From contig OY781871.1 of NCBI GenBank assembly GCA_963677105.1, positions 810,001 through 842,000 on the forward strand: a stretch of 32,000 bases of DNA. The letters are read 5' to 3'. Below the pieces are notes generated by a model. The model ran no database searches, was not told the origin of the DNA, and saw only the letters and a program-made list of their open reading frames with translations. How positions within the stretch are numbered: the stretch's first letter is position 1; every line of letters starts with the position of its first letter. Of this stretch, positions 3,284 through 11,694 are shown piece after piece. Source of the stretch: Candidatus Saccharimonadota bacterium (lineage in GTDB: Bacteria > Patescibacteriota > Gracilibacteria > UBA4473). The translations under genes were made by a program, and so were the position numbers.

Positions 3284-4789
3284 ATGAGGAAAATATTTTT
3301 GGCTTTCAGTATACTTGTTCTTACAAGTCTAAATTATACATACGCAGAAGAAAGTGCAGTTGAGATTGTAGAGCAGGTTTTACAACCAGTTATTACAGTT
3401 GATTCGTTTGTTCCAATAGGAGAAAAAGTTCTTTTTGATGCAACAAATTCAGGATTACTTGCGCCATCTGCAGGAGTACCAGTTTATGCATGGAATTTTG
3501 GTGATGGAAGTCGTATGAAATGGGGATCTCAAGTTGGATATCAATTTGATAAAGCAGGACGATACACAGTACGTTTACAATTACGACAAGGAAGACAGAG
3601 GGAAGTAATAGAGCGGACAATTTCAGTGTTTAATCGTCGAGCAGTATTAGTTGCAGATCCAGATTTTGATGCTTCAGGATTAATTGAACGTGCTGGAAAA
3701 TATGGAATTTGGCTTGATGTTATACCATTTTCACGTTCTGTTTCAGGAGTGACAGCAGATGAGCAATTTATGAAGAAACTGCAAATAAAACAATCGTTTA
3801 TTGAACAGGCAGATTTAATTATTTTTTACACAGAAAATTCAGGAGGAGTTCAGGGAGTTGCACAATGGTGGAAAGGGTTGCCAGAAGAAAATAGATTTAA
3901 TCCTACACATAAGTTTTGGGTTCAAGTCTCAACTGGATCACTTTCACAATTGCGGAAATTATCACAACCAGGATTTGGGATATTGCAACCAGAAAAAATA
4001 TTACTTACGCGACCAGAGGCGTTAGATGTCATTTTTGCTGCAGCAAAAATGGAATCAGTGGCAAATGAGTTGCGAGCAAGAGGTGTAGAATCTCAAATAT
4101 TAGATGATCGTGTGAGTGCATCATGGTTCTTGCCAATTTCTCGAACAATGACGTATTTCGTAACACATGGAGTAACGCAAAGTGTTCTCTTTTTATTGTT
4201 AGTAGTGCCTTTTATAACTTTTTTAATTGCGTTTGCTAGACAAGTTATTGGATTACGAACATTTGGTGTTTATGCCCCATTAATGCTGACTTTGTCGTTT
4301 ATTTTATTAGGATTTAGATTTGGTTTTGCCGTATTTTCTGTAGTATTGATTGTGAGTTATTTGATTCGATTATTATTCGATAAAGTTGAGTTGCTCTATA
4401 TTCCAAAAATTTCATTACTTTTGTCGGCATTAGCGCTTTCATTTTTTCTTGTTCTGGGAGTAGCAGTGCAATTTGATACACAAACAAATTTAGCATTAGC
4501 TGTTTTCCCGATGTTGGTAATGTCAACAATATCAGAGAAATTTTTGTCTGCACAATCTGAAGGAGGACTAAAATCAGCCGTACAAATAGCAGGAGAAACA
4601 GTAATCGTTTCATTATTGGCATTCATGTTTGTTCAGTGGAATTGGATGCAAAATTTAATACTTGCGTTTCCTGAAATAATGTTACTTCCAATTCTAGGAT
4701 GTATTTGGATTGGACGATGGACAGGATTGCGGTTGACTGAATATTTTCGGTTTTCAGCCTTATTTCGTGATGACTCCAGAGAAGAATGA
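3284..4789 (+). CDS. Secreted PKD-domain protein fused to a C-terminal 7TM module of the type usually fused to an inactive transglutaminase
   Basis: Signal peptide MRKIFLAFSILVLTSLNYTYAEE. PKD-like segment at nt 3386-3631 with WNFGDGS and GRYTVRL. About seven hydrophobic helices lie at nt 4172-4720, with RQVIGLRTFGVYAPLML and the terminal GRWTGLRLTEYFRF characteristic of that 7TM family. The track start at 3266 is TTG, so the ATG at 3284 is preferred. The stop overlaps the next start (ATGA). Confidence 0.75.
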   Translation: MRKIFLAFSILVLTSLNYTYAEESAVEIVEQVLQPVITVDSFVPIGEKVLFDATNSGLLAPSAGVPVYAWNFGDGSRMKWGSQVGYQFDKAGRYTVRLQLRQGRQREVIERTISVFNRRAVLVADPDFDASGLIERAGKYGIWLDVIPFSRSVSGVTADEQFMKKLQIKQSFIEQADLIIFYTENSGGVQGVAQWWKGLPEENRFNPTHKFWVQVSTGSLSQLRKLSQPGFGILQPEKILLTRPEALDVIFAAAKMESVANELRARGVESQILDDRVSASWFLPISRTMTYFVTHGVTQSVLFLLLVVPFITFLIAFARQVIGLRTFGVYAPLMLTLSFILLGFRFGFAVFSVVLIVSYLIRLLFDKVELLYIPKISLLLSALALSFFLVLGVAVQFDTQTNLALAVFPMLVMSTISEKFLSAQSEGGLKSAVQIAGETVIVSLLAFMFVQWNWMQNLILAFPEIMLLPILGCIWIGRWTGLRLTEYFRFSALFRDDSREE

Positions 4790-7089
4790 GTTTTTTTCAA
4801 CGAGCAAATCGGATATTAGGCATGAACGCGCGTAATCTAGAATACGTTGCTCGACACAATTCTTTTGCAGATAAAAAATTCGCAGATGATAAAATTTTTA
4901 CCAAAAATTTTTTGTCATCACGTGGTATTGGAGTGGCAAAATTATTTCATGTAATACGCTCTCATACACAAGTAACACCAGAGTTTATAAAATCTTTACC
5001 GAGTGCATTTGTTATAAAACCAAATCGTGGGTTTGGAGGAGGAGGAATTTATGTATTTTTGGAAAAACAAAATGAAAAATGGATCACTCCATCAGGAGAG
5101 AAGTTCGATGTAAATGATATTTTTCGTCATTGTATTGATATTTTAGAAGGAAAATATTCTATTTCGGGAGTACAAGACAGTGTTATTTTTGAAGAAGTAC
5201 TTGTGGCACATTCTGCATTTCGTTCTTTGACAGAAATAGGATTGCCAGATATTCGTGTAATTGTATTTAATCGTGTTCCAGTTTTAGCAATGTTACGAAT
5301 TCCGACAGAAGAATCTGAAGGAAAAGCGAATATGGAGCTTGGAGCATATGGAATGGGAATAGATTTATCTACCGGAAAAACTACTGGCGCAGCCTATCAT
5401 TCTAAATTTTTAAAAAAATTACCAAATGGAGAGCCTACAGTAGGATTTGAAGTTCCATTTTGGGACGAAATTTTATTAGCGGCAGCACGAGTACAACATA
5501 CAACAGGAATTGGGTTTTTAGGATGTGATTTTGTAGTGGTTCCATCAGGAGTAAAGGTGTTGGAAGTAAATGCTCGACCAGGATTAAAAATTCAAATAGC
5601 AAATAATACGCCGTTAAAACCTCGTTTGAAAAAAGTAGCAGATTTGAATATTGCGTCTCCAGAAGATGGAGCAAAAATAGCAAAACAATTATTTGCACAA
5701 ACTGTTTCAGTAGACTCATCAAAACCAAAACGAGAAGTAATCGGTGCGATTGAGTCAGTCGTATTAAATCTTTCTTCTCCAGAAATGGTATTAGCAAAAG
5801 TAGATTTAGGTGCCTCAGCGAACATTATTTCTGCTCGTTTTGCAACAGAGATAAAAGGTCTTTTGGACATAACAATTGGAGGACAACGTTTAAAATTACC
5901 AGTAAAAGAAGGGGAAACAGGGGAGTTTGACTTGCTCTTAGCTGGAAAATTTTTAACTGATTTTCTTATTGATGTGAACAAAAAAGTTGAACACTCTCCG
6001 GAGCTTATTGCTGCGGATTTAGATGAACGAAAATTAAAAAGTTTAGATGAAAAAGTATCAGAGATAGATGAGCAAATAAAACTTTTATCTGTTCTCAATC
6101 CGAGGAATTTATTGGAACAAAAAGAATTATTTTTTGCTCATAAAGATTATGTTCCTCGATTTCTTTATCGTGCTATTGAGTTAGACATTGATCGTTTTCG
6201 CAGAGAGTTAAAACGATTACCAACTAATATAGATCATATATTGGTTCCATTATTTAAAAATAAAATCCAAGAATTATCATATAAATTGGACTTAATTGAA
6301 GCACGAGAAACAGATCATTTTTCACAAGCCTCAGAAGTTTTATTTGGAAAAGTAACACAATCTCTGTATCGAGAAGCAGTAGATTTCATAAAGAAACATG
6401 CAAAAATTCTGGCAGACACGAGTTTAGTCGTTGATGCAAAGGGAGCGGCGGCGGTGGTTGAAAATTTTTGTAAGAAAAATAAATTGGGACATTGGACGGT
6501 TTCAATCATTAATGATTCTGTGGCAGATATGCAGGTTTCCAAAAAAGGGAAAGTGCTCATTCGGAAAGATGCGACCTTTACTGAAAACAGATTAACAGCG
6601 TTATTAGTACATGAAATTGGAACACATGTGTTTCGATTTGAAAATGGAAAACGACAAAAATTCCGATTATTTGAGCGTGGAACAGCTGGATATTTAGAAA
6701 CAGAAGAAGGATTGGCGATTTATAATCAAAACCAATTAGGACTTCCTTTAGGTGAAAAATTCCTTACGCCGGCATTATTGGTTGTTGCGATTTTCTTGGC
6801 GAAAAAGATGGGGTTTCGTGAGTTATTTGAAATTCTACAACAAACCTATTCTTTATCCGATGAAGTTGCATGGAAGCTGTGTGTAAAGGCAAAACGTGGA
6901 ACGGCGGATCAATCAAAACCAGGTTCATTTACTAAAGATTTGGCATATTTCAAGGGAGAACGTGCAATTGAAAAGTTCGTAGAAAATGGGGGAGATATTC
7001 AGAGTTTATACATTGGAAAAGTAACTATTGCTGATCTAAAAGCACTGAAAAAGTTTGATGACATGGTAAAGCCGAAATGGAGTTTATAA
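4786..7089 (+). CDS. Three-domain fusion: RimK-related (alpha-L-glutamate-ligase-like) ATP-grasp, retropepsin-like DUF785 domain, and DUF1704/QEGLA (MATCAP-like) metallopeptidase
   Basis: aa 1-290: ILGMNARNLEYVARHN..FADDKIFTKNFL, VIKPNRGFGGGGI and LEVNARPGL are ATP-grasp hallmarks. aa 317-399: MVLAKVDLGASANIISA ... DLLLAGKFLTDFLIDV resembles the DUF785 pattern AKIDTGA...LLGR..L..F.VD. aa 418-767: LNPRNLLEQKELFF..PRFLYR, HEIGTH (nt 6610-6627) and ETEEGLA (nt 6697-6717) match DUF1704/QEGLA. Confidence 0.8.
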   Translation: MSFFQRANRILGMNARNLEYVARHNSFADKKFADDKIFTKNFLSSRGIGVAKLFHVIRSHTQVTPEFIKSLPSAFVIKPNRGFGGGGIYVFLEKQNEKWITPSGEKFDVNDIFRHCIDILEGKYSISGVQDSVIFEEVLVAHSAFRSLTEIGLPDIRVIVFNRVPVLAMLRIPTEESEGKANMELGAYGMGIDLSTGKTTGAAYHSKFLKKLPNGEPTVGFEVPFWDEILLAAARVQHTTGIGFLGCDFVVVPSGVKVLEVNARPGLKIQIANNTPLKPRLKKVADLNIASPEDGAKIAKQLFAQTVSVDSSKPKREVIGAIESVVLNLSSPEMVLAKVDLGASANIISARFATEIKGLLDITIGGQRLKLPVKEGETGEFDLLLAGKFLTDFLIDVNKKVEHSPELIAADLDERKLKSLDEKVSEIDEQIKLLSVLNPRNLLEQKELFFAHKDYVPRFLYRAIELDIDRFRRELKRLPTNIDHILVPLFKNKIQELSYKLDLIEARETDHFSQASEVLFGKVTQSLYREAVDFIKKHAKILADTSLVVDAKGAAAVVENFCKKNKLGHWTVSIINDSVADMQVSKKGKVLIRKDATFTENRLTALLVHEIGTHVFRFENGKRQKFRLFERGTAGYLETEEGLAIYNQNQLGLPLGEKFLTPALLVVAIFLAKKMGFRELFEILQQTYSLSDEVAWKLCVKAKRGTADQSKPGSFTKDLAYFKGERAIEKFVENGGDIQSLYIGKVTIADLKALKKFDDMVKPKWSL

Positions 7090-7129: not shown

Positions 7130-7717
7130 TTATTCTGTAATTTTTTTATACCAACTTGCAGCGAGTTTTTTATCTCCAGCTTCATCTTCATAGTCAAAAA
7201 TTTTATCTTTTTCCCAACCATTCTTTTTGTGAGATCCATGTGATTTTTCATTGTCTTCGTCAATTTGACAACACATAAAAATTTGTTTTTTTGTTTGTTT
7301 GCAAATTGTGCGGAGTACATCTTCAGTTTTCATTTCTAGAGCAGAAGAAACTCCTTGGCGACGAAAATTTTCATCTACCCATAGTGAATGTAACCAGTGG
7401 GAGTCAGTAGATTTTCCATATGATTTTCCTGCATTGACAATGCGGGCACCTATTACTTTTTCTTCTGATTTTGCAAGAACGAAAATCATACCAGATTTTT
7501 TTAAATGTTCTTTAAAATCTGTGACTGAGGTGAGTCCTCGTGATTTCAAAAACTCATCAGATGATTTTTTTCGATTTTTATATAAATCAATTAAAGATTC
7601 TATAGTTGCATCGTCTCCAGGGTTGTTTGCAGAAAAAACATCTACAGGAAAAGTTTTTGGAGCTTGTTCAAAAGTTGCTGGTAATTCTGTGATTTTTTCC
7701 ATCTGTATATTATACAT
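7130..7717 (-). CDS. GNAT family N-acetyltransferase
   Basis: LHSLWVDENFRRQGVSSAL is the acetyl-CoA-binding motif A (R/Q-x-x-G-x-G/A). A downstream N..S....K.NGW segment resembles motif B. 195 aa. Confidence 0.7.
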   Translation of the reverse strand: MYNIQMEKITELPATFEQAPKTFPVDVFSANNPGDDATIESLIDLYKNRKKSSDEFLKSRGLTSVTDFKEHLKKSGMIFVLAKSEEKVIGARIVNAGKSYGKSTDSHWLHSLWVDENFRRQGVSSALEMKTEDVLRTICKQTKKQIFMCCQIDEDNEKSHGSHKKNGWEKDKIFDYEDEAGDKKLAASWYKKITE

Positions 7718-7843: not shown

Positions 7844-9514
7844 CTACATCCTTTCTGGAGCTTGAAATCCAAGTATTTCCATTCCTTTTTCAAGAACATT
7901 TAAAACCTTTTCGGCTAATGCAATACGAGCGCTTATGAGCTCAGGTGTTTCTGCTTTCAAAACAGAGTTTGCTGCATAATAACTCGACCAATCTTGTGCC
8001 AATTCTAAGAGATAAGTAGCGACATATGTAGGATTCAAGTTTTCAGCCGCGCGATTTAATACATCTGGAAATGCGAGAATTTTTGCACCAAGGTCCTTTT
8101 CTGCTTCGCCTAAATAGTTCTCAGCGTTAATATTTTTCTGTTTGCTGGCTTTTCGGAGAATAGATTGAATTCGTACTGCTGCGTATTGTAAATACGGTCC
8201 TGTGGCACCTTCAAACGCGATAGATTTTTTAGCATCAAACGTAATAGTTTTTTTCGGAGAAGTCTGTAACAAATAAAACTTCCACGCAGCATTTTGAATT
8301 TTCTCAGCAGTTTCGCGTATTTCTTCTTCGCTCCAATCTTCATGACGTTTTTTGATTTCTTCTGTTGCAAGAGAATGAAGTTCATCCATTAAATTATCTG
8401 CATCAACAACAGTTCCTTCACGTGATTTCATTCGTCCGTCGGGAAGGTTTACTAATCCATATCCGAGATGATGGAGATGTTTTGGATCAATGAGTCCTAA
8501 TTTATTAAGACATGTAAATAAAACTTTGAAGTGATAGTTCTGTTCATCAGCAACCACATACATCATTTGATCTGGTTCAAAATCTTTCATTCGAGCTGTT
8601 GCAACAGCCAAATCTTGCGTTAAATAAATAGAAGTTCCATCTGCACGAAGTATCACTTTTTCATCGAGTCCTTCGTCTGTTAAATCAATAACAATAGCGT
8701 TATCATCTCTCTTTTGGAAAACACCTTTTTCAAGTCCATTTTCAGCAAGAGTTCGTCCTTCTTGGTAATATTCAGATTCTTTATATTCTTTTTCAAAAGA
8801 AACTCCTTGACGCTTGTATGTTTCTGCGTGTCCATTAAGTGCCCAACTCGACATTTTTTTCCATAAATTTTTAATTTCTTCATCACCAGATTCCCATTTC
8901 ACGAGCATTGCTTTTGCTTCATCGATAAGTGTTTCGTCTTTTTTTGATTCTTCATTAAATTTCACGTACCAGTCTCCCACAAAGTGATCACTTTTTTTGT
9001 TCGGTTCTTCATTATTTCCCCATTTTTGGTAGGCGAGTATAGATTTACAAATATGAACGCCACGATCATTAATGATATTTACTCGATGAACTTTTGCATC
9101 TACGGATTCCAGTAAATTTGATACGGAAATTCCGAGCGCATGATTCCTCATGTGACCGAGATGAAGCGGTTTATTTGTGTTTGGTCCAGAAAATTCAATT
9201 ACGATATTTTGTCCTGCAGAACAAGTTCCGTTGAGGGGGGTTTTAAACACATTTTCAAAGAATTGTTTTGGTGCGAAATAAAGATTGAGATATGGACCAA
9301 CGAGTTCTGTTTTTTCTATAAAATCGCATTCTTGAAGTATTTCTGAAACGCGTGTTGCAATCTGAACAGGGGATTGTCCTTCACTTTTTGCCAGAAGAAA
9401 AAACTTCATTGCAAGATCGCCTGTTTGTCCACGAGGAACAGGTGCAAATTCTATCTTTGAACAAAATTCTTGATCAAAAGTTTTTTGTAGCCAAGTAAGT
9501 ACAAGGTTTTCCAT
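7844..9514 (-). CDS. argS: Arginine--tRNA ligase
   Basis: Class I HIGH motif NTNKPLHLGHMRNHALG. KMSKS-equivalent GRMKSREG. C-terminal anticodon-binding (DALR-like) helical domain. 556 aa. Confidence 0.92.
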   Translation of the reverse strand: MENLVLTWLQKTFDQEFCSKIEFAPVPRGQTGDLAMKFFLLAKSEGQSPVQIATRVSEILQECDFIEKTELVGPYLNLYFAPKQFFENVFKTPLNGTCSAGQNIVIEFSGPNTNKPLHLGHMRNHALGISVSNLLESVDAKVHRVNIINDRGVHICKSILAYQKWGNNEEPNKKSDHFVGDWYVKFNEESKKDETLIDEAKAMLVKWESGDEEIKNLWKKMSSWALNGHAETYKRQGVSFEKEYKESEYYQEGRTLAENGLEKGVFQKRDDNAIVIDLTDEGLDEKVILRADGTSIYLTQDLAVATARMKDFEPDQMMYVVADEQNYHFKVLFTCLNKLGLIDPKHLHHLGYGLVNLPDGRMKSREGTVVDADNLMDELHSLATEEIKKRHEDWSEEEIRETAEKIQNAAWKFYLLQTSPKKTITFDAKKSIAFEGATGPYLQYAAVRIQSILRKASKQKNINAENYLGEAEKDLGAKILAFPDVLNRAAENLNPTYVATYLLELAQDWSSYYAANSVLKAETPELISARIALAEKVLNVLEKGMEILGFQAPERM

Positions 9515-9564
9515 TGTTTATAGAGTAACAAATTAAGATATTTTGTCAGTTTTTCTTTTATTAA

Positions 9565-9600
9565 AATTAAAGAAAAGGGCGAGAAATATTTCCTCGCCCA
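9565..9600 (-). terminator. Rho-independent terminator between argG and argS
   Basis: On the minus strand, GGGCGAG-N9-CTCGCCC (9577-9599) is followed by TTTTCTTTAATTTT. Confidence 0.55.
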
Positions 9601-9609
9601 AGATAAGAA

Positions 9610-10884
9610 TCAGTTTTTATACAGATCTGATTCCCAGTCATGTAAATTAAACGCTATTTTTTGAGGAAGATTATAGATTTCTATAAATCCAGCAGAAGAG
9701 TTTTGGTTAAATGCCGTATTTTTATTAAATGTTGCGAGATTCTGATCGAAGAGAGAGTTTTGTGATGAAAGAGAAATGATAGAGATATTTCCTTTGTATA
9801 GTTTTATTTTCACCGTTCCAGTTACCTTTTTATTTTGACTATTGATAAAAGCGTGAATGTGATACATCACGGGATCACACCATTTTGAGGCATATGTTAA
9901 GTACGCCCATTTGTTATCAATAAAAGATTTTAATTCATTTTCTTCTCTCGTGGAGACAAGTTTTTCTAATTTCTTATGTGCTTCAATTAAAATACTTGCC
10001 GCGGGATTTTCATAGACACCTCTTACTTTTAATCCAACAATCCTGTCTTCAATTAAGTGAAAAATTCCTACGCCGTGTTTTCCTCCAATTTTATTTAATT
10101 CAGATATAAGAGTACTCAATTTTTTCTTTTTTCCATTTATCGCAATAGGTTTTCCTTTTTGAAATTCTATTTCTATAACTTCATTTTTATAACAAGCTTT
10201 TTCAGGAATAGAACACCATTTTAGAATTTTTTCATCAATAGTTATGTTTTCTGGATTTTCTATTTCTCCGCCTTCGCCCGTATTTCCCCACATATTTTCA
10301 TCATAAGAAAATGGCGAGTCTTTTTTTTGAATTACTGGAATATTGTGTTTTTTCGCGTATTCAATCTGCTCATCTCTTCCCATAGACCATTCTCTTACGG
10401 GTGCAATCGTTTTTAAATTTGGATCAAGCGTTGTTATATATCCTTCAAATCGAACTTGGTCATTTCCTTTTCCGGTACAGCCGTGAGCAATTACGGAGCA
10501 GTTATATTTTTGTGCCATTTTTACAGCAACTTTTGAAATCATAATTCTGCCAAGAGGACAACTAAGAGCATATCCACCTTGATAATCAGCATTTGCCATG
10601 ATCGCTTCACTAATAAATGTATTTGCAAACTCATCTTTTGCGTCATAAATAATTGCTTCTTTTGCTCCAAGAGAAAGTGCCTTTTCTTTAATTTCATTTA
10701 AATTGTCGACAGTTTGTCCAATATCAATTGTGAGAGTTATAACGTCACATTTATATTGTTCTTGAATCCATTTTAATAAAATACTGGTATCAAGTCCTCC
10801 AGAATAAAGGAGAAGACAAGTTTTAAATGTACCAGAATGCGCTTCATGAGAAGCGACTTTTTGATATGATGTTGTGGTTTTCAT
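9610..10884 (-). CDS. argG: Argininosuccinate synthase
   Basis: N-type ATP-pyrophosphatase motif LLYSGGLDTS. The signature AHGCTGKGNDQVRFE is present. 424 aa. Confidence 0.92.
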   Translation of the reverse strand: MKTTTSYQKVASHEAHSGTFKTCLLLYSGGLDTSILLKWIQEQYKCDVITLTIDIGQTVDNLNEIKEKALSLGAKEAIIYDAKDEFANTFISEAIMANADYQGGYALSCPLGRIMISKVAVKMAQKYNCSVIAHGCTGKGNDQVRFEGYITTLDPNLKTIAPVREWSMGRDEQIEYAKKHNIPVIQKKDSPFSYDENMWGNTGEGGEIENPENITIDEKILKWCSIPEKACYKNEVIEIEFQKGKPIAINGKKKKLSTLISELNKIGGKHGVGIFHLIEDRIVGLKVRGVYENPAASILIEAHKKLEKLVSTREENELKSFIDNKWAYLTYASKWCDPVMYHIHAFINSQNKKVTGTVKIKLYKGNISIISLSSQNSLFDQNLATFNKNTAFNQNSSAGFIEIYNLPQKIAFNLHDWESDLYKN

Positions 10885-10917
10885 ATTTATAAGGGTTTAA
10901 ATAATTTAATATGTAAT

Positions 10918-10952
10918 AAAAAAATTCCATCGCAGTGTAATACTGAGACGGA
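10918..10952 (-). terminator. Candidate attenuator terminator in the argG leader
   Basis: On the minus strand, CCGUCUCAG-UAUUACA-CUGCGAUGG (10951->10927; 5 bp, one mismatch, 3 bp) is followed by AA plus a U7 run (10924->10918). It lies about 33 nt before the argG ATG. Confidence 0.45.
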
Positions 10953-10986
10953 TCAAAAATTGCGTTTTGGTTCACAAAATCTCCGC

Positions 10987-11034
10987 CTATTGGCGGCGAC
11001 GACGAAGTTGTGAAACCAGAATCCAGACGTTCAT
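10987..11034 (-). CDS. Candidate Arg-rich leader peptide MNVWILVSQLRRRRQ
   Basis: ATG AAC GTC TGG ATT CTG GTT TCA CAA CTT CGT CGT CGC CGC CAA TAG, read directly from the minus strand. Four consecutive Arg codons sit two codons before the stop, and the ORF is embedded in alternative hairpins upstream of argG. Confidence 0.45.
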   Translation of the reverse strand: MNVWILVSQLRRRRQ

Positions 11035-11054
11035 TGCTGAGAGTCTGTCACGAG

Positions 11055-11082
11055 AGTATAGATTTTGTCAAATTTTTTACAA
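11055..11082 (-). promoter_or_regulatory. Possible sigma-70 promoter for the argG leader
   Basis: On the minus strand: TTGTAA (11082->11077), a 16-nt spacer, then TATACT (11060->11055). The leader hairpin starts about 8 nt downstream. Confidence 0.3.
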
Positions 11083-11141
11083 AAAATATCAAAATCAATA
11101 TTGTCTAAAAAACTTTTTTGAGTAGAATCTTTTTGTTCCTC

Positions 11142-11227
11142 GCTCGGGTGGTGGAACGGTAGACACAGGAGACTTAAAATCTCCCGCTCTCACGGGCGTG
11201 CGGGTTCGATTCCCGCCTCGAGCACCA
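11142..11227 (+). tRNA. tRNA-Leu (anticodon UAA), type II with long variable arm, CCA encoded
   Basis: Acceptor GCTCGGG/CTCGAGC. Anticodon arm GGAGA-CTTAAAA-TCTCC. T arm GCGGG-TTCGATT-CCCGC. Discriminator A followed by CCA. 86 nt. Confidence 0.9.
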
Positions 11228-11229
11228 CG

Positions 11230-11270
11230 AAAACATCTTTTATCCCTTGGGGTTGTGGATGTTTTTATCT
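11230..11270 (+). terminator. Hairpin after tRNA-Leu(UAA)
   Basis: AAAACATC (11230-11237) pairs with GATGTTTT (11258-11265). It is followed by TATCTT. Confidence 0.4.
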
Positions 11271-11335
11271 TACGGAATATATTTAAAAATAATTTGTTTT
11301 TTTCAGCTTTCTGATTACTATCTGACTACCAATTT

Positions 11336-11419
11336 GCGCGGGTGGTGAAATGGTAGACACGCTGGTCTTAGGAACCAGTGCCGCAAGGCGTGGAGGTTCG
11401 AGTCCTCTCCCGCGTACCA
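11336..11419 (+). tRNA. tRNA-Leu (anticodon UAG), type II, CCA encoded
   Basis: Acceptor GCGCGGG/CCCGCGT with a G1-U72 wobble. Anticodon arm CTGGT-CTTAGGA-ACCAG. T loop TTCGAGT. 84 nt. Confidence 0.88.
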
Positions 11420-11566
11420 CGTCGGAATAATCTGTGTTTGTTCCGTTTTTTGTTACACAAAAAAGCTTCACTGCTTCGCTATTCCTTCTCCTTAAATCAA
11501 AAAATCAAAACACATTTTGTCAGTTATTTTGGGAATTTTGATTTAATAAAAGAAAGGCAAAAAAGA

Positions 11567-11620: not shown

Positions 11621-11694
11621 TGGAGGCGCCATCCGGATTTGAACCGGAGTACAAGGCTTTGCAGGCCTCTGCGTAACCACTCCGCCATGGCGCC
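11621..11694 (-). tRNA. tRNA-Cys (anticodon GCA), CCA encoded
   Basis: The reverse complement is GGCGCCA...CTGCAAA...TTCAAAT...TGGCGCC-T-CCA. 74 nt cloverleaf with discriminator U. Confidence 0.9.

Follow-up and report, generated by a model that had tools for sequence, protein, structure and literature searches.

In a 32,000-nt stretch of the genome of a Candidatus Saccharimonadota bacterium (contig OY781871.1; the whole stretch is called the window hereafter), a short open reading frame (ORF) with four consecutive arginine codons lies ~100 nt upstream of the argininosuccinate synthase gene argG, together with RNA segments that can form alternative helices (1:2, 2:3 and 3:4) and a run of seven U. 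We propose, at a probability of about 0.85, that this leader is a ribosome-mediated (leader-peptide) transcription attenuator, which would sense charged tRNA-Arg and control argG. The proposal rests on sequence elements, thermodynamic plausibility, conservation with covariation, and positional geometry; from these we infer that the ORF is translated, where transcription starts, that RNA polymerase and ribosome are coupled and that the system responds to arginine. The traits of the mechanistic class are present, namely an ORF with cognate codons, a terminator, a 2:3 antiterminator, a 1:2 helix over the regulatory codons, and the spacing between them. A sequence-only reading of this DNA had suggested trp/his-style attenuation logic for arginine, and the conserved mini-ORF, the covariation, the antiterminator geometry and the replacement by other regulators in relatives all argue for it.

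The leader ORF and its alternative helices

The argG gene (9610–10884, minus strand) encodes a 424-aa protein that matches NCBIfam NF001770 above the curated cutoff (E 1e-148), and it is the gene predicted to be regulated by the leader. Its 5′ intergenic region of 257 nt is common to a divergent tRNA-Leu/tRNA-Leu operon on the plus strand. The leader ORF (10987–11034, minus strand; ATG at 11034–11032, TAG at 10989–10987) has 15 codons plus the stop, reads ATG AAC GUC UGG AUU CUG GUU UCA CAA CUU CGU CGU CGC CGC CAA UAG, and encodes MNVWILVSQLRRRRQ. The regulatory codons CGU CGU CGC CGC occupy 10993–11004 on the same strand and are separated from the stop by a single CAA. Both this ORF, with its four Arg codons, and the helices and U tract described below lie base for base where the sequence-only reading had placed them on the minus strand. 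Apart from low-complexity KKK/SSS ORFs, no other leader-type mini-ORF was found in the window.

A candidate −35 hexamer of the leader promoter, TTGACA, is located at 11066–11071 (minus strand), and its spacing to the leader ATG is conserved: an exact TTGACA stands 29–32 nt before the ATG in the window copy (WIN) and in seven related argG loci (the loci being labelled L001 and so on; here L001, L002, L003, L006, L007, L008 and L028). A weak −10 element (ACAGAC/CAGACT, 11048–11042) follows 17–18 nt after TTGACA and ends 7 nt before the leader ATG. Hexamers of the form TAnnnT peak 6–9 nt before the ATG in 16 of the 31 leaders compared, the TAnnnT/promoter pattern being found upstream of the leader ATG in L001–L008, L023, L028, L033, L036, L039, L043, L049 and L057. 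Because the TTGACA spacing is fixed and TAnnnT peaks so close to the ATG, the leader ORFs are probably carried on leaderless or near-leaderless transcripts, and it is the promoter geometry that points to the leader start site. An alternative promoter-like site from a consensus scan, TTGTAA-16-TATACT (11055–11082, minus strand), would give a 5′ untranslated region (UTR) of ~14 nt; its position is not conserved in relatives. A Shine-Dalgarno-like motif precedes only 1 of 25 window genes, so that its lack before the leader ORF is normal in this genome and no objection to the proposal. The window has a G+C content of 32–37%, encodes RF2 and uses TAA, TAG and TGA as the stop of 17, 5 and 4 of 26 ORFs, respectively; its arginine codons include CGA (37%), CGT (27%), AGA (21%) and CGC (8%).

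Four segments of the leader RNA, all read on the minus strand, enter into the alternative pairings. Segment 1 (10992–11018) provides the 5′ arms of the 1:2 hairpin in minimum free energy (MFE) folds, with the outer arm UGGUUUCACAA at 11018–11008 and an inner arm within 10999–10992 that overlaps Arg codons 2–4 (of codon 2 only the last base, 10999) as well as the initial C of CAA. Within segment 2 (10968–10988), AGGCGGAGA (10988–10980) pairs with either segment 1 or segment 3, and UUGUGAACCA (10977–10968) closes the outer part of 1:2. The outer 1:2 helix joins GGUUUCACAA (11017–11008) to UUGUGAACC (10977–10969) and the inner one CCGCC (10996–10992) to GGCGG (10987–10983), whose first G is the last base of the UAG stop; the inner helix has two registers, and RNAfold favours UCGCC (10999–10995) with GGCGG and a 7-nt loop. 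Segment 3 (UCCGUCUCAGU, 10942–10952) is the 5′ arm of the terminator; in the antiterminator, the 7 nt at its 5′ end pair with segment 2. This 2:3 helix, AGGCGGA with UCCGUCU (10952–10946), consists of 7 bp with one G-U, plus 2 pairs past a bulge. Segment 4 (the ACUGCGAUGGA region, 10926–10935) is the 3′ arm of the terminator hairpin (10952–10926), and the U7 tract (10918–10924) ends 33 nt before the argG ATG (10884).

Folding of 10885–11050 (minus strand) with RNAfold returned an MFE structure that is exactly 1:2 plus 3:4, at −41.4 kcal/mol, with a z-score of −4.16 and 0 of 200 dinucleotide shuffles folding as well. The single helices come to −19.6 kcal/mol for 1:2, −13.2 kcal/mol for 2:3 (a value for the nascent RNA, small nested hairpin included) and −11.4 kcal/mol for 3:4. 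This fold and this comparison of energies had been proposed along with the helices, and the worry raised there that the 3:4 hairpin might be too weak to terminate falls away, since −11.4 kcal/mol followed by U7 is of ordinary strength. In the nascent-RNA fold, 7 of the 11 nt of segment 3 are paired upstream.

Conservation of the leader in related argG loci

The window belongs to a patescibacterial genome of the Peribacteria/Gracilibacteria kind. The closest relatives of the window ArgG (75–87% identity) come from metagenome-assembled genomes (MAGs) labelled Candidatus Peribacteria, Gracilibacteria or Peregrinibacteria, and farther ones from other Patescibacteria (Magasanik-, Uhr-, Moran- and Saccharibacteria) as well as Francisella, Calditrichia and others. 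Mini-ORFs were looked for in the 400 nt before argG in a comparative set of 73 related loci. A short ORF of 14–29 codons with a run of 2–4 Arg codons was found in 31 of the 73, and a hairpin with a U-run follows it in 30, the ORF of L014 having no detectable terminator. With at least six further copies within operons (below), relatives thus keep the Arg-codon mini-ORF on whose conservation the sequence-only reading had staked its case, and the whole architecture is kept in more than 35 loci from several classes of the candidate phyla radiation (CPR).

In L001–L008 the homologous ORFs end in LRRR(R)x and a stop, and the leader peptides read, for example, MKVYIFVSQLRRRSR in L001, MNFVYLVSQLRRRP in L002, MNIWNLVSQLRRRRL in L007, MNFKVLFTNLRRRP in L008, MIIYNYINTNLRRRLWA in L011, MDYTKLYLHARRRRYRCAG in L021, MSNYSIQANTRRRSPRISGGCPCNC in L034 and MLNNISIIRRRRLVRNSH in L038. 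Outside the Arg run the peptides vary in sequence, length and C-terminal tail across the 31 leaders. The Arg codons are mostly CGN, with AGG AGA AGA AGA in L038, AGG AGG AGA in L047, CGC AGA CGC in L011 and AGR codons also in L051 and L054; the AGR-coded leaders belong to AT-rich genomes. The Arg run is kept across all 31 leaders despite this change from CGN to AGR, which argues for selection on codon meaning and not on nucleotides. Among 184 small ORFs upstream of argG, 21 contain RRR, as against 53 of 6073 elsewhere in the same loci, a 13-fold enrichment; neither Ala nor Pro runs, the products of a CGN repeat read in its two other frames, were found in the small ORFs upstream of argG.

Several of the "background" RRR hits are further genuine copies that stand before genes of arginine operons, each with its own terminator and 2:3 complementarity. 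There are at least six such copies. In L009 and L052 the copy lies before a 137-aa protein that is followed by argG-argH; in L010 it lies before a member of the same protein family, then an ornithine carbamoyltransferase-like gene (a call made by eye), then argG; in L015 it precedes a further unannotated gene before argG; in L047 it is located after argG; and in L021 it is the upstream one of two. The two L021 leaders are in tandem on one contig (2398–2512 and 2855–2981): the first, encoding MNTSTFVPAPRRPLN, has its own TTGACA promoter and stands before an 81-aa ORF without Pfam match, and the second precedes argG-argH.

Other loci depart from the common pattern in ways of their own. In L047 (3001–4310), argG is not an open frame under table 11, and therefore UGA is probably a sense codon (code 25) in that genome; the Arg leader ORF (AGG AGG AGA) would then run through UGA into segment 2. 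L022 (2891–2983), on a Melioribacteraceae chromosome, carries a leader RNA related to that of L011 in sequence and architecture, the shared RNA being GGUGUAG...CAUACACC followed by the terminator CCCUCUUC...GGAGAGGG. The Arg codons are gone from its mini-ORF, which reads ..KYKICIIAFWC..; possibly an attenuator decayed or was re-specified here once argG had been transferred horizontally. In L002 and L004, ~120 nt of additional DNA sets the attenuator terminator apart from argG (167 nt vs 41–47 nt in other close relatives); L005, with the same leader, lacks it.

A plain MAFFT alignment of 8 leaders analysed with RNAalifold yielded hardly any consensus structure, the arms being out of register by 1–2 columns, and it was dropped. 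It was replaced by alignment guided by a covariance model (CM) built from WIN and L007 with the 1:2 and 3:4 structure. The CM recovered the leaders of L001–L008, L011, L019, L021 (twice), L028 and L037, and a single copy in the window. Covariation was measured on a 12-sequence CM alignment, A4, in which 90.1% of cells form standard pairs, compared to 61% in shuffles and 36–51% with partners slid by 1–3 columns; none of 500 shuffles attains even one of the five measures. Compensatory, both-side changes were observed at 22 of the 25 pairs of 1:2 and 3:4, that is at 13 of 15 pairs in the two helices of the 1:2 hairpin and at 9 of 10 in the terminator helix, where 95% of cells are paired. The covarying helices looked for in relatives are accordingly present. 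The linker CAAAAYGYAAUUUU is conserved in close relatives.

The 2:3 helix is unsuited to a column-wise test on A4, because in an alignment fitted to 1:2 and 3:4 its register differs by one column from subgroup to subgroup. That test was abandoned, and the duplex of the exposed region with the terminator 5′ arm was instead assessed sequence by sequence over 30 leaders, by RNAduplex against shuffles and against cross-locus pairings. It beats shuffles in 29 of 30 leaders (mean z −3.4); for 13 leaders none of 300 shuffles did equally well, and in most leaders the true pairing came among the top three when set against cross-locus pairings. The pairing is GGCGGA/UCCGUC in the window, GCGGGUUAAA/UUUUGACCCGU in L002, GCGGGCA/UGCCCGC in L008 and GGGCGUA/UACGCCC in L011, and helices of the Saccharibacteria type reach 11–12 bp.

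At orthologous argG genes other arginine regulators were found where the leader is missing. T-box leaders precede argG in L012, L018 and L058 (MAGs of Uhrbacteria type; E 4e-14 to 4e-8, below the Rfam gathering score), with the specifier GAA-CGC-G, i.e. the Arg codon CGC. Rfam at gathering score had missed these three and L069; a rescan by E-value found those of L012, L018 and L058, and in L069, without a match at gathering score, the T-box sequence and specifier are alike by eye only. Exact ARG boxes (TGAATWWWWATTCA) occur 13–90 nt upstream of Francisella argG orthologues and at no other locus examined. In the window, no T-box (RF00230) was matched at gathering score, nor at E≤10 on 9400–11200, and no ARG box with up to 2 mismatches was found in 10885–11141, the window-wide count being that of chance. 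The presence of a T-box or an ArgR box at orthologous argG makes an arginine-responsive role of the leader arrangement very likely. A different control element is seen in L059, L060 and L061 (Saccharimonadales), which are without an Arg leader: a conserved TTGACAC-N17-TACACT promoter lies ~60–120 nt upstream of argG, followed by GTACACTTTTG...CAAAATGTAC, an inverted repeat that encloses a UUUGUGAGG...CACAAA hairpin.

The proposed switch and its alternatives

According to the model, transcription would begin at the leader AUG or shortly upstream of it, and while RNA polymerase proceeds, a ribosome would translate the 15-codon ORF. When Arg-tRNA is plentiful, the ribosome would reach UAG and cover segment 2 (AGGCGGAGA); after its release, or if the ORF is not translated, segment 2 would be locked in the stable 1:2 hairpin. 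In either case segment 2 would be unavailable, segment 3 would pair with segment 4, and transcription would stop at U7, 33 nt before argG. When Arg-tRNA is scarce, the ribosome would stall with the first or second CGU in the A site, holding segment 1 and exposing segment 2, which could pair with segment 3 as soon as this is made, so that the terminator is blocked and argG is transcribed.

The geometry across the family fits this scheme. A ribosome protects ~12–13 nt 3′ of the first A-site base, and the distance from the start of the first Arg codon to segment 2 is 14–25 nt in 27 of 30 leaders (16 nt in the window); therefore, a ribosome stalled at either of the first two Arg codons would free segment 2 and hold segment 1. 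With respect to the stop codon, segment 2 starts from 36 nt before to 5 nt after its first base, and therefore a terminating ribosome would cover segment 2. In constrained partition functions the terminator probability is high for the free RNA and for a ribosome at the stop, and it drops to ~0 with a ribosome placed on the first Arg codon in 14 leaders. An antiterminator with switch geometry thus recurs in almost every leader, in line with the original suggestion.

Several observations weigh against the attenuator model. The window 2:3 duplex alone reaches −10.4 kcal/mol (z −1.6, p ~0.09 vs shuffles), which is among the weakest in the family, and the terminator still dominates at equilibrium with a ribosome on the first Arg codon (P = 0.98). 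Read-through in the window must therefore depend on 2:3 forming before segment 4 is transcribed; a thermodynamic switch, in which equilibrium masking would displace the terminator, was considered and is not claimed for this copy, and only a kinetic switch, for which the spacing is kinetically plausible, is proposed. A ribosome stalled on the third or fourth Arg codon would partly cover segment 2, the window has a poor −10 element (CAGACT) at the conserved spacing, and the A4 alignment used for covariation was fitted by the CM to the tested structure. In trp leaders, 3:4 and 1:2 are at least as stable as 2:3, an order like that of the window, and in the trp leader of E. coli 3:4 exceeds 2:3 in stability. 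Concerning the mutually exclusive helices of the sequence-only reading, 1:2 and 3:4 hold in the window as described, while 2:3 is present but modest there; it is unconvincing in isolation and becomes convincing only through its conservation in relatives. The weak antiterminator of the window copy is part of the doubt that we retain.

Since segment 2 would be freed by a ribosome stalling anywhere in the last third of the ORF, and several leaders have only two Arg codons, the element might sense translation stress in general, or serve as a coupling or reinitiation leader, without specificity for arginine. We consider this very improbable: Arg is the only amino acid with enriched runs upstream of argG, the element is confined to arginine-pathway operons among the loci examined, and an Arg-specific T-box or ArgR boxes take its place in other lineages. 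It is also very improbable, ranking below the general sensor, that the nascent peptide is an arrest sensor of free arginine of the fungal arginine attenuator peptide (AAP), TnaC or SpeFL type, stalling at high arginine. The peptide is indeed short, with an Arg-rich C terminus, and lies upstream of an arginine gene. However, arrest peptides need a defined sequence, whereas only the Arg run is conserved here, with flanks, length (14–29 aa) and C-terminal tail varying over 31 leaders; besides, a stall at high arginine would expose segment 2 and turn argG ON, presumably the wrong sign for a biosynthetic gene.

The conserved alternative secondary structure with its covariation, and the linker conserved in close relatives, could also belong to an RNA that binds a protein or a metabolite (riboswitch-like or the target of an RNA-binding protein), the small ORF being incidental. 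Against this, an in-frame ATG, Arg run and stop are kept in all members despite nucleotide divergence that includes the change from CGN to AGR, neither an unpaired pocket nor a multi-helix junction is conserved, and no Rfam family matched even at E≤10; such a binding RNA is in our view highly unlikely, and lower in rank than the arrest peptide. The least probable explanation is coincidence, that is a constitutive terminator or a small-RNA gene upstream of argG, to which the window 2:3 helix, not significantly above shuffles by itself, would lend some credit. The fold z-score and the architecture kept over the many loci speak otherwise, and the comparative data effectively refute it. A leader-peptide attenuator responding to charged tRNA-Arg is thus the reading that we retain.

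Gene context, distribution and known leader systems

Downstream of argG, a strong intrinsic terminator (9577–9599, minus strand) with a 10-bp stem of 6 GC pairs, followed by UUUUCUUU, separates argG from argS (arginine--tRNA ligase, 7844–9514, minus strand; TIGR00456, E 9e-132). Besides this terminator, the interval between the two genes holds AT-rich DNA with a possible separate promoter. With these elements in between, argS may or may not share the argG signal, as the sequence-only reading had allowed for if the terminator is leaky. argS is syntenic with argG in relatives and lies downstream of it in L001, L007, L008, L021 and L052. In most relatives argG is followed by argH; in the window lineage (WIN, L001, L007) argS takes this position, and neither argH nor argF was found in the window. 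Past argS on the plus strand, a 767-aa fusion (4786–7089) of a RimK-related alpha-L-glutamate ligase-like domain and a QEGLA-motif domain, both below curated cutoffs, adjoins a GNAT acetyltransferase (7130–7717). On the other side of the leader, the divergent two-gene tRNA-Leu unit (UAA, UAG; 11142–11445, plus strand) shares its promoter region with the argG leader and has its own terminator at 11423–11445, and a tRNA-Cys gene (11621–11694, minus strand) lies just past it.

A family of ~137-aa proteins without Pfam match recurs inside argG/argH operons controlled by Arg leaders (L021, 5599–6012; L009, 2183–2605; L052, ~2547–2966; L010, ~1565–1951; L017, ~2504–2899), and it is a candidate for an unrecognised arginine-pathway gene. 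If the attenuator is real, the regulon would mark this family, in the same five loci, and the 81-aa ORF of L021 as genes of the arginine pathway, and the leader could be used as a marker for arginine-related genes in CPR genomes.

Leader-peptide control is recognised for Trp, His, Phe, Leu, Thr and Ile/Val and, in isolated cases, for Lys and Cys, and arginine is regarded as being under ArgR or T-box control. The amino-acid attenuators listed in a survey of RNA regulons are specific only for His, Leu, Thr, Trp, Ile/Val and Phe (PMC3766115), an earlier comparative study gives T-boxes as the RNA-level control for arginine (PMC1262725), and arginine is unmentioned in Naville & Gautheret 2010. The Rfam 15 leader families (Trp, His, Leu, Thr, Phe) gave no match in the window at gathering score, nor at E≤10 on 9400–11200. 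Neither Rfam 15 nor the searchable full-text literature, where most subscription journals fall outside coverage, yielded an arginine leader-peptide attenuator. We think it likely, though with less assurance than for the attenuator itself, that in several CPR classes (Peribacteria/Gracilibacteria, Magasanikbacteria, Moranbacteria and Saccharibacteria) the operons for arginine synthesis are controlled mainly by an uncatalogued family of Arg leader-peptide attenuators, probably on leaderless transcripts, and that in evolution this family is interchangeable with Arg T-boxes and ArgR operators at the same gene.

Such a family would add an amino acid to the leader-peptide list and display a natural swap of three unrelated sensors, leader peptide, T-box and ArgR, at one orthologous gene. 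It would also offer a rare handle on gene regulation in uncultured CPR bacteria, predicting that tRNA-Arg charging is sensed and that transcription-translation coupling works in ultra-small CPR cells, despite the lack of Shine-Dalgarno use and, apparently, of 5′ UTRs at these leaders.

Among the systems that act at orthologous argG genes, T-boxes share with the window leader the signal (tRNA-Arg charging), the position before the gene and the choice between terminator and antiterminator; they differ in binding uncharged tRNA directly, via Stem I and the T-box sequence, with translation not needed. ArgR and its ARG boxes likewise control argG in response to arginine, but here the sensor of free arginine is a protein, ArgR, which binds DNA and acts at transcription initiation. 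The fungal AAP (the arg-2/CPA1 upstream ORF) also precedes an arginine-biosynthesis gene and responds to arginine. In contrast to the window leader, however, it is a conserved peptide of ~24 aa that stalls at high free arginine and blocks downstream translation, with no Arg-codon run, no terminator and the opposite logic.

Leader-peptide control outside Proteobacteria, and for "non-classical" amino acids, is known from the leaderless, Cys-rich short ORF attenuators of mycobacteria and from the lysine leader peptide of Thermus. Both differ from the window leader in amino acid, phylum and RNA; the mycobacterial case also uses leaderless mini-ORFs, a status that for the window leader is suggested by promoter geometry only. 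The closest likeness is to the proteobacterial leaders trpL, hisL, pheL, leuL, thrL and ilvL, which equally combine a short ORF with tandem cognate codons, 1:2, 2:3 and 3:4 alternatives and an intrinsic terminator just before the biosynthetic gene, and which are OFF by default without translation. The window leader differs from them in its amino acid, arginine, in its CPR host without Shine-Dalgarno use and in a transcript that is probably leaderless. On every feature that can be tested in silico it matches the trpL/hisL class; the attenuation mechanism is already known, and what would be new is its specificity for arginine, in a poorly understood CPR group.

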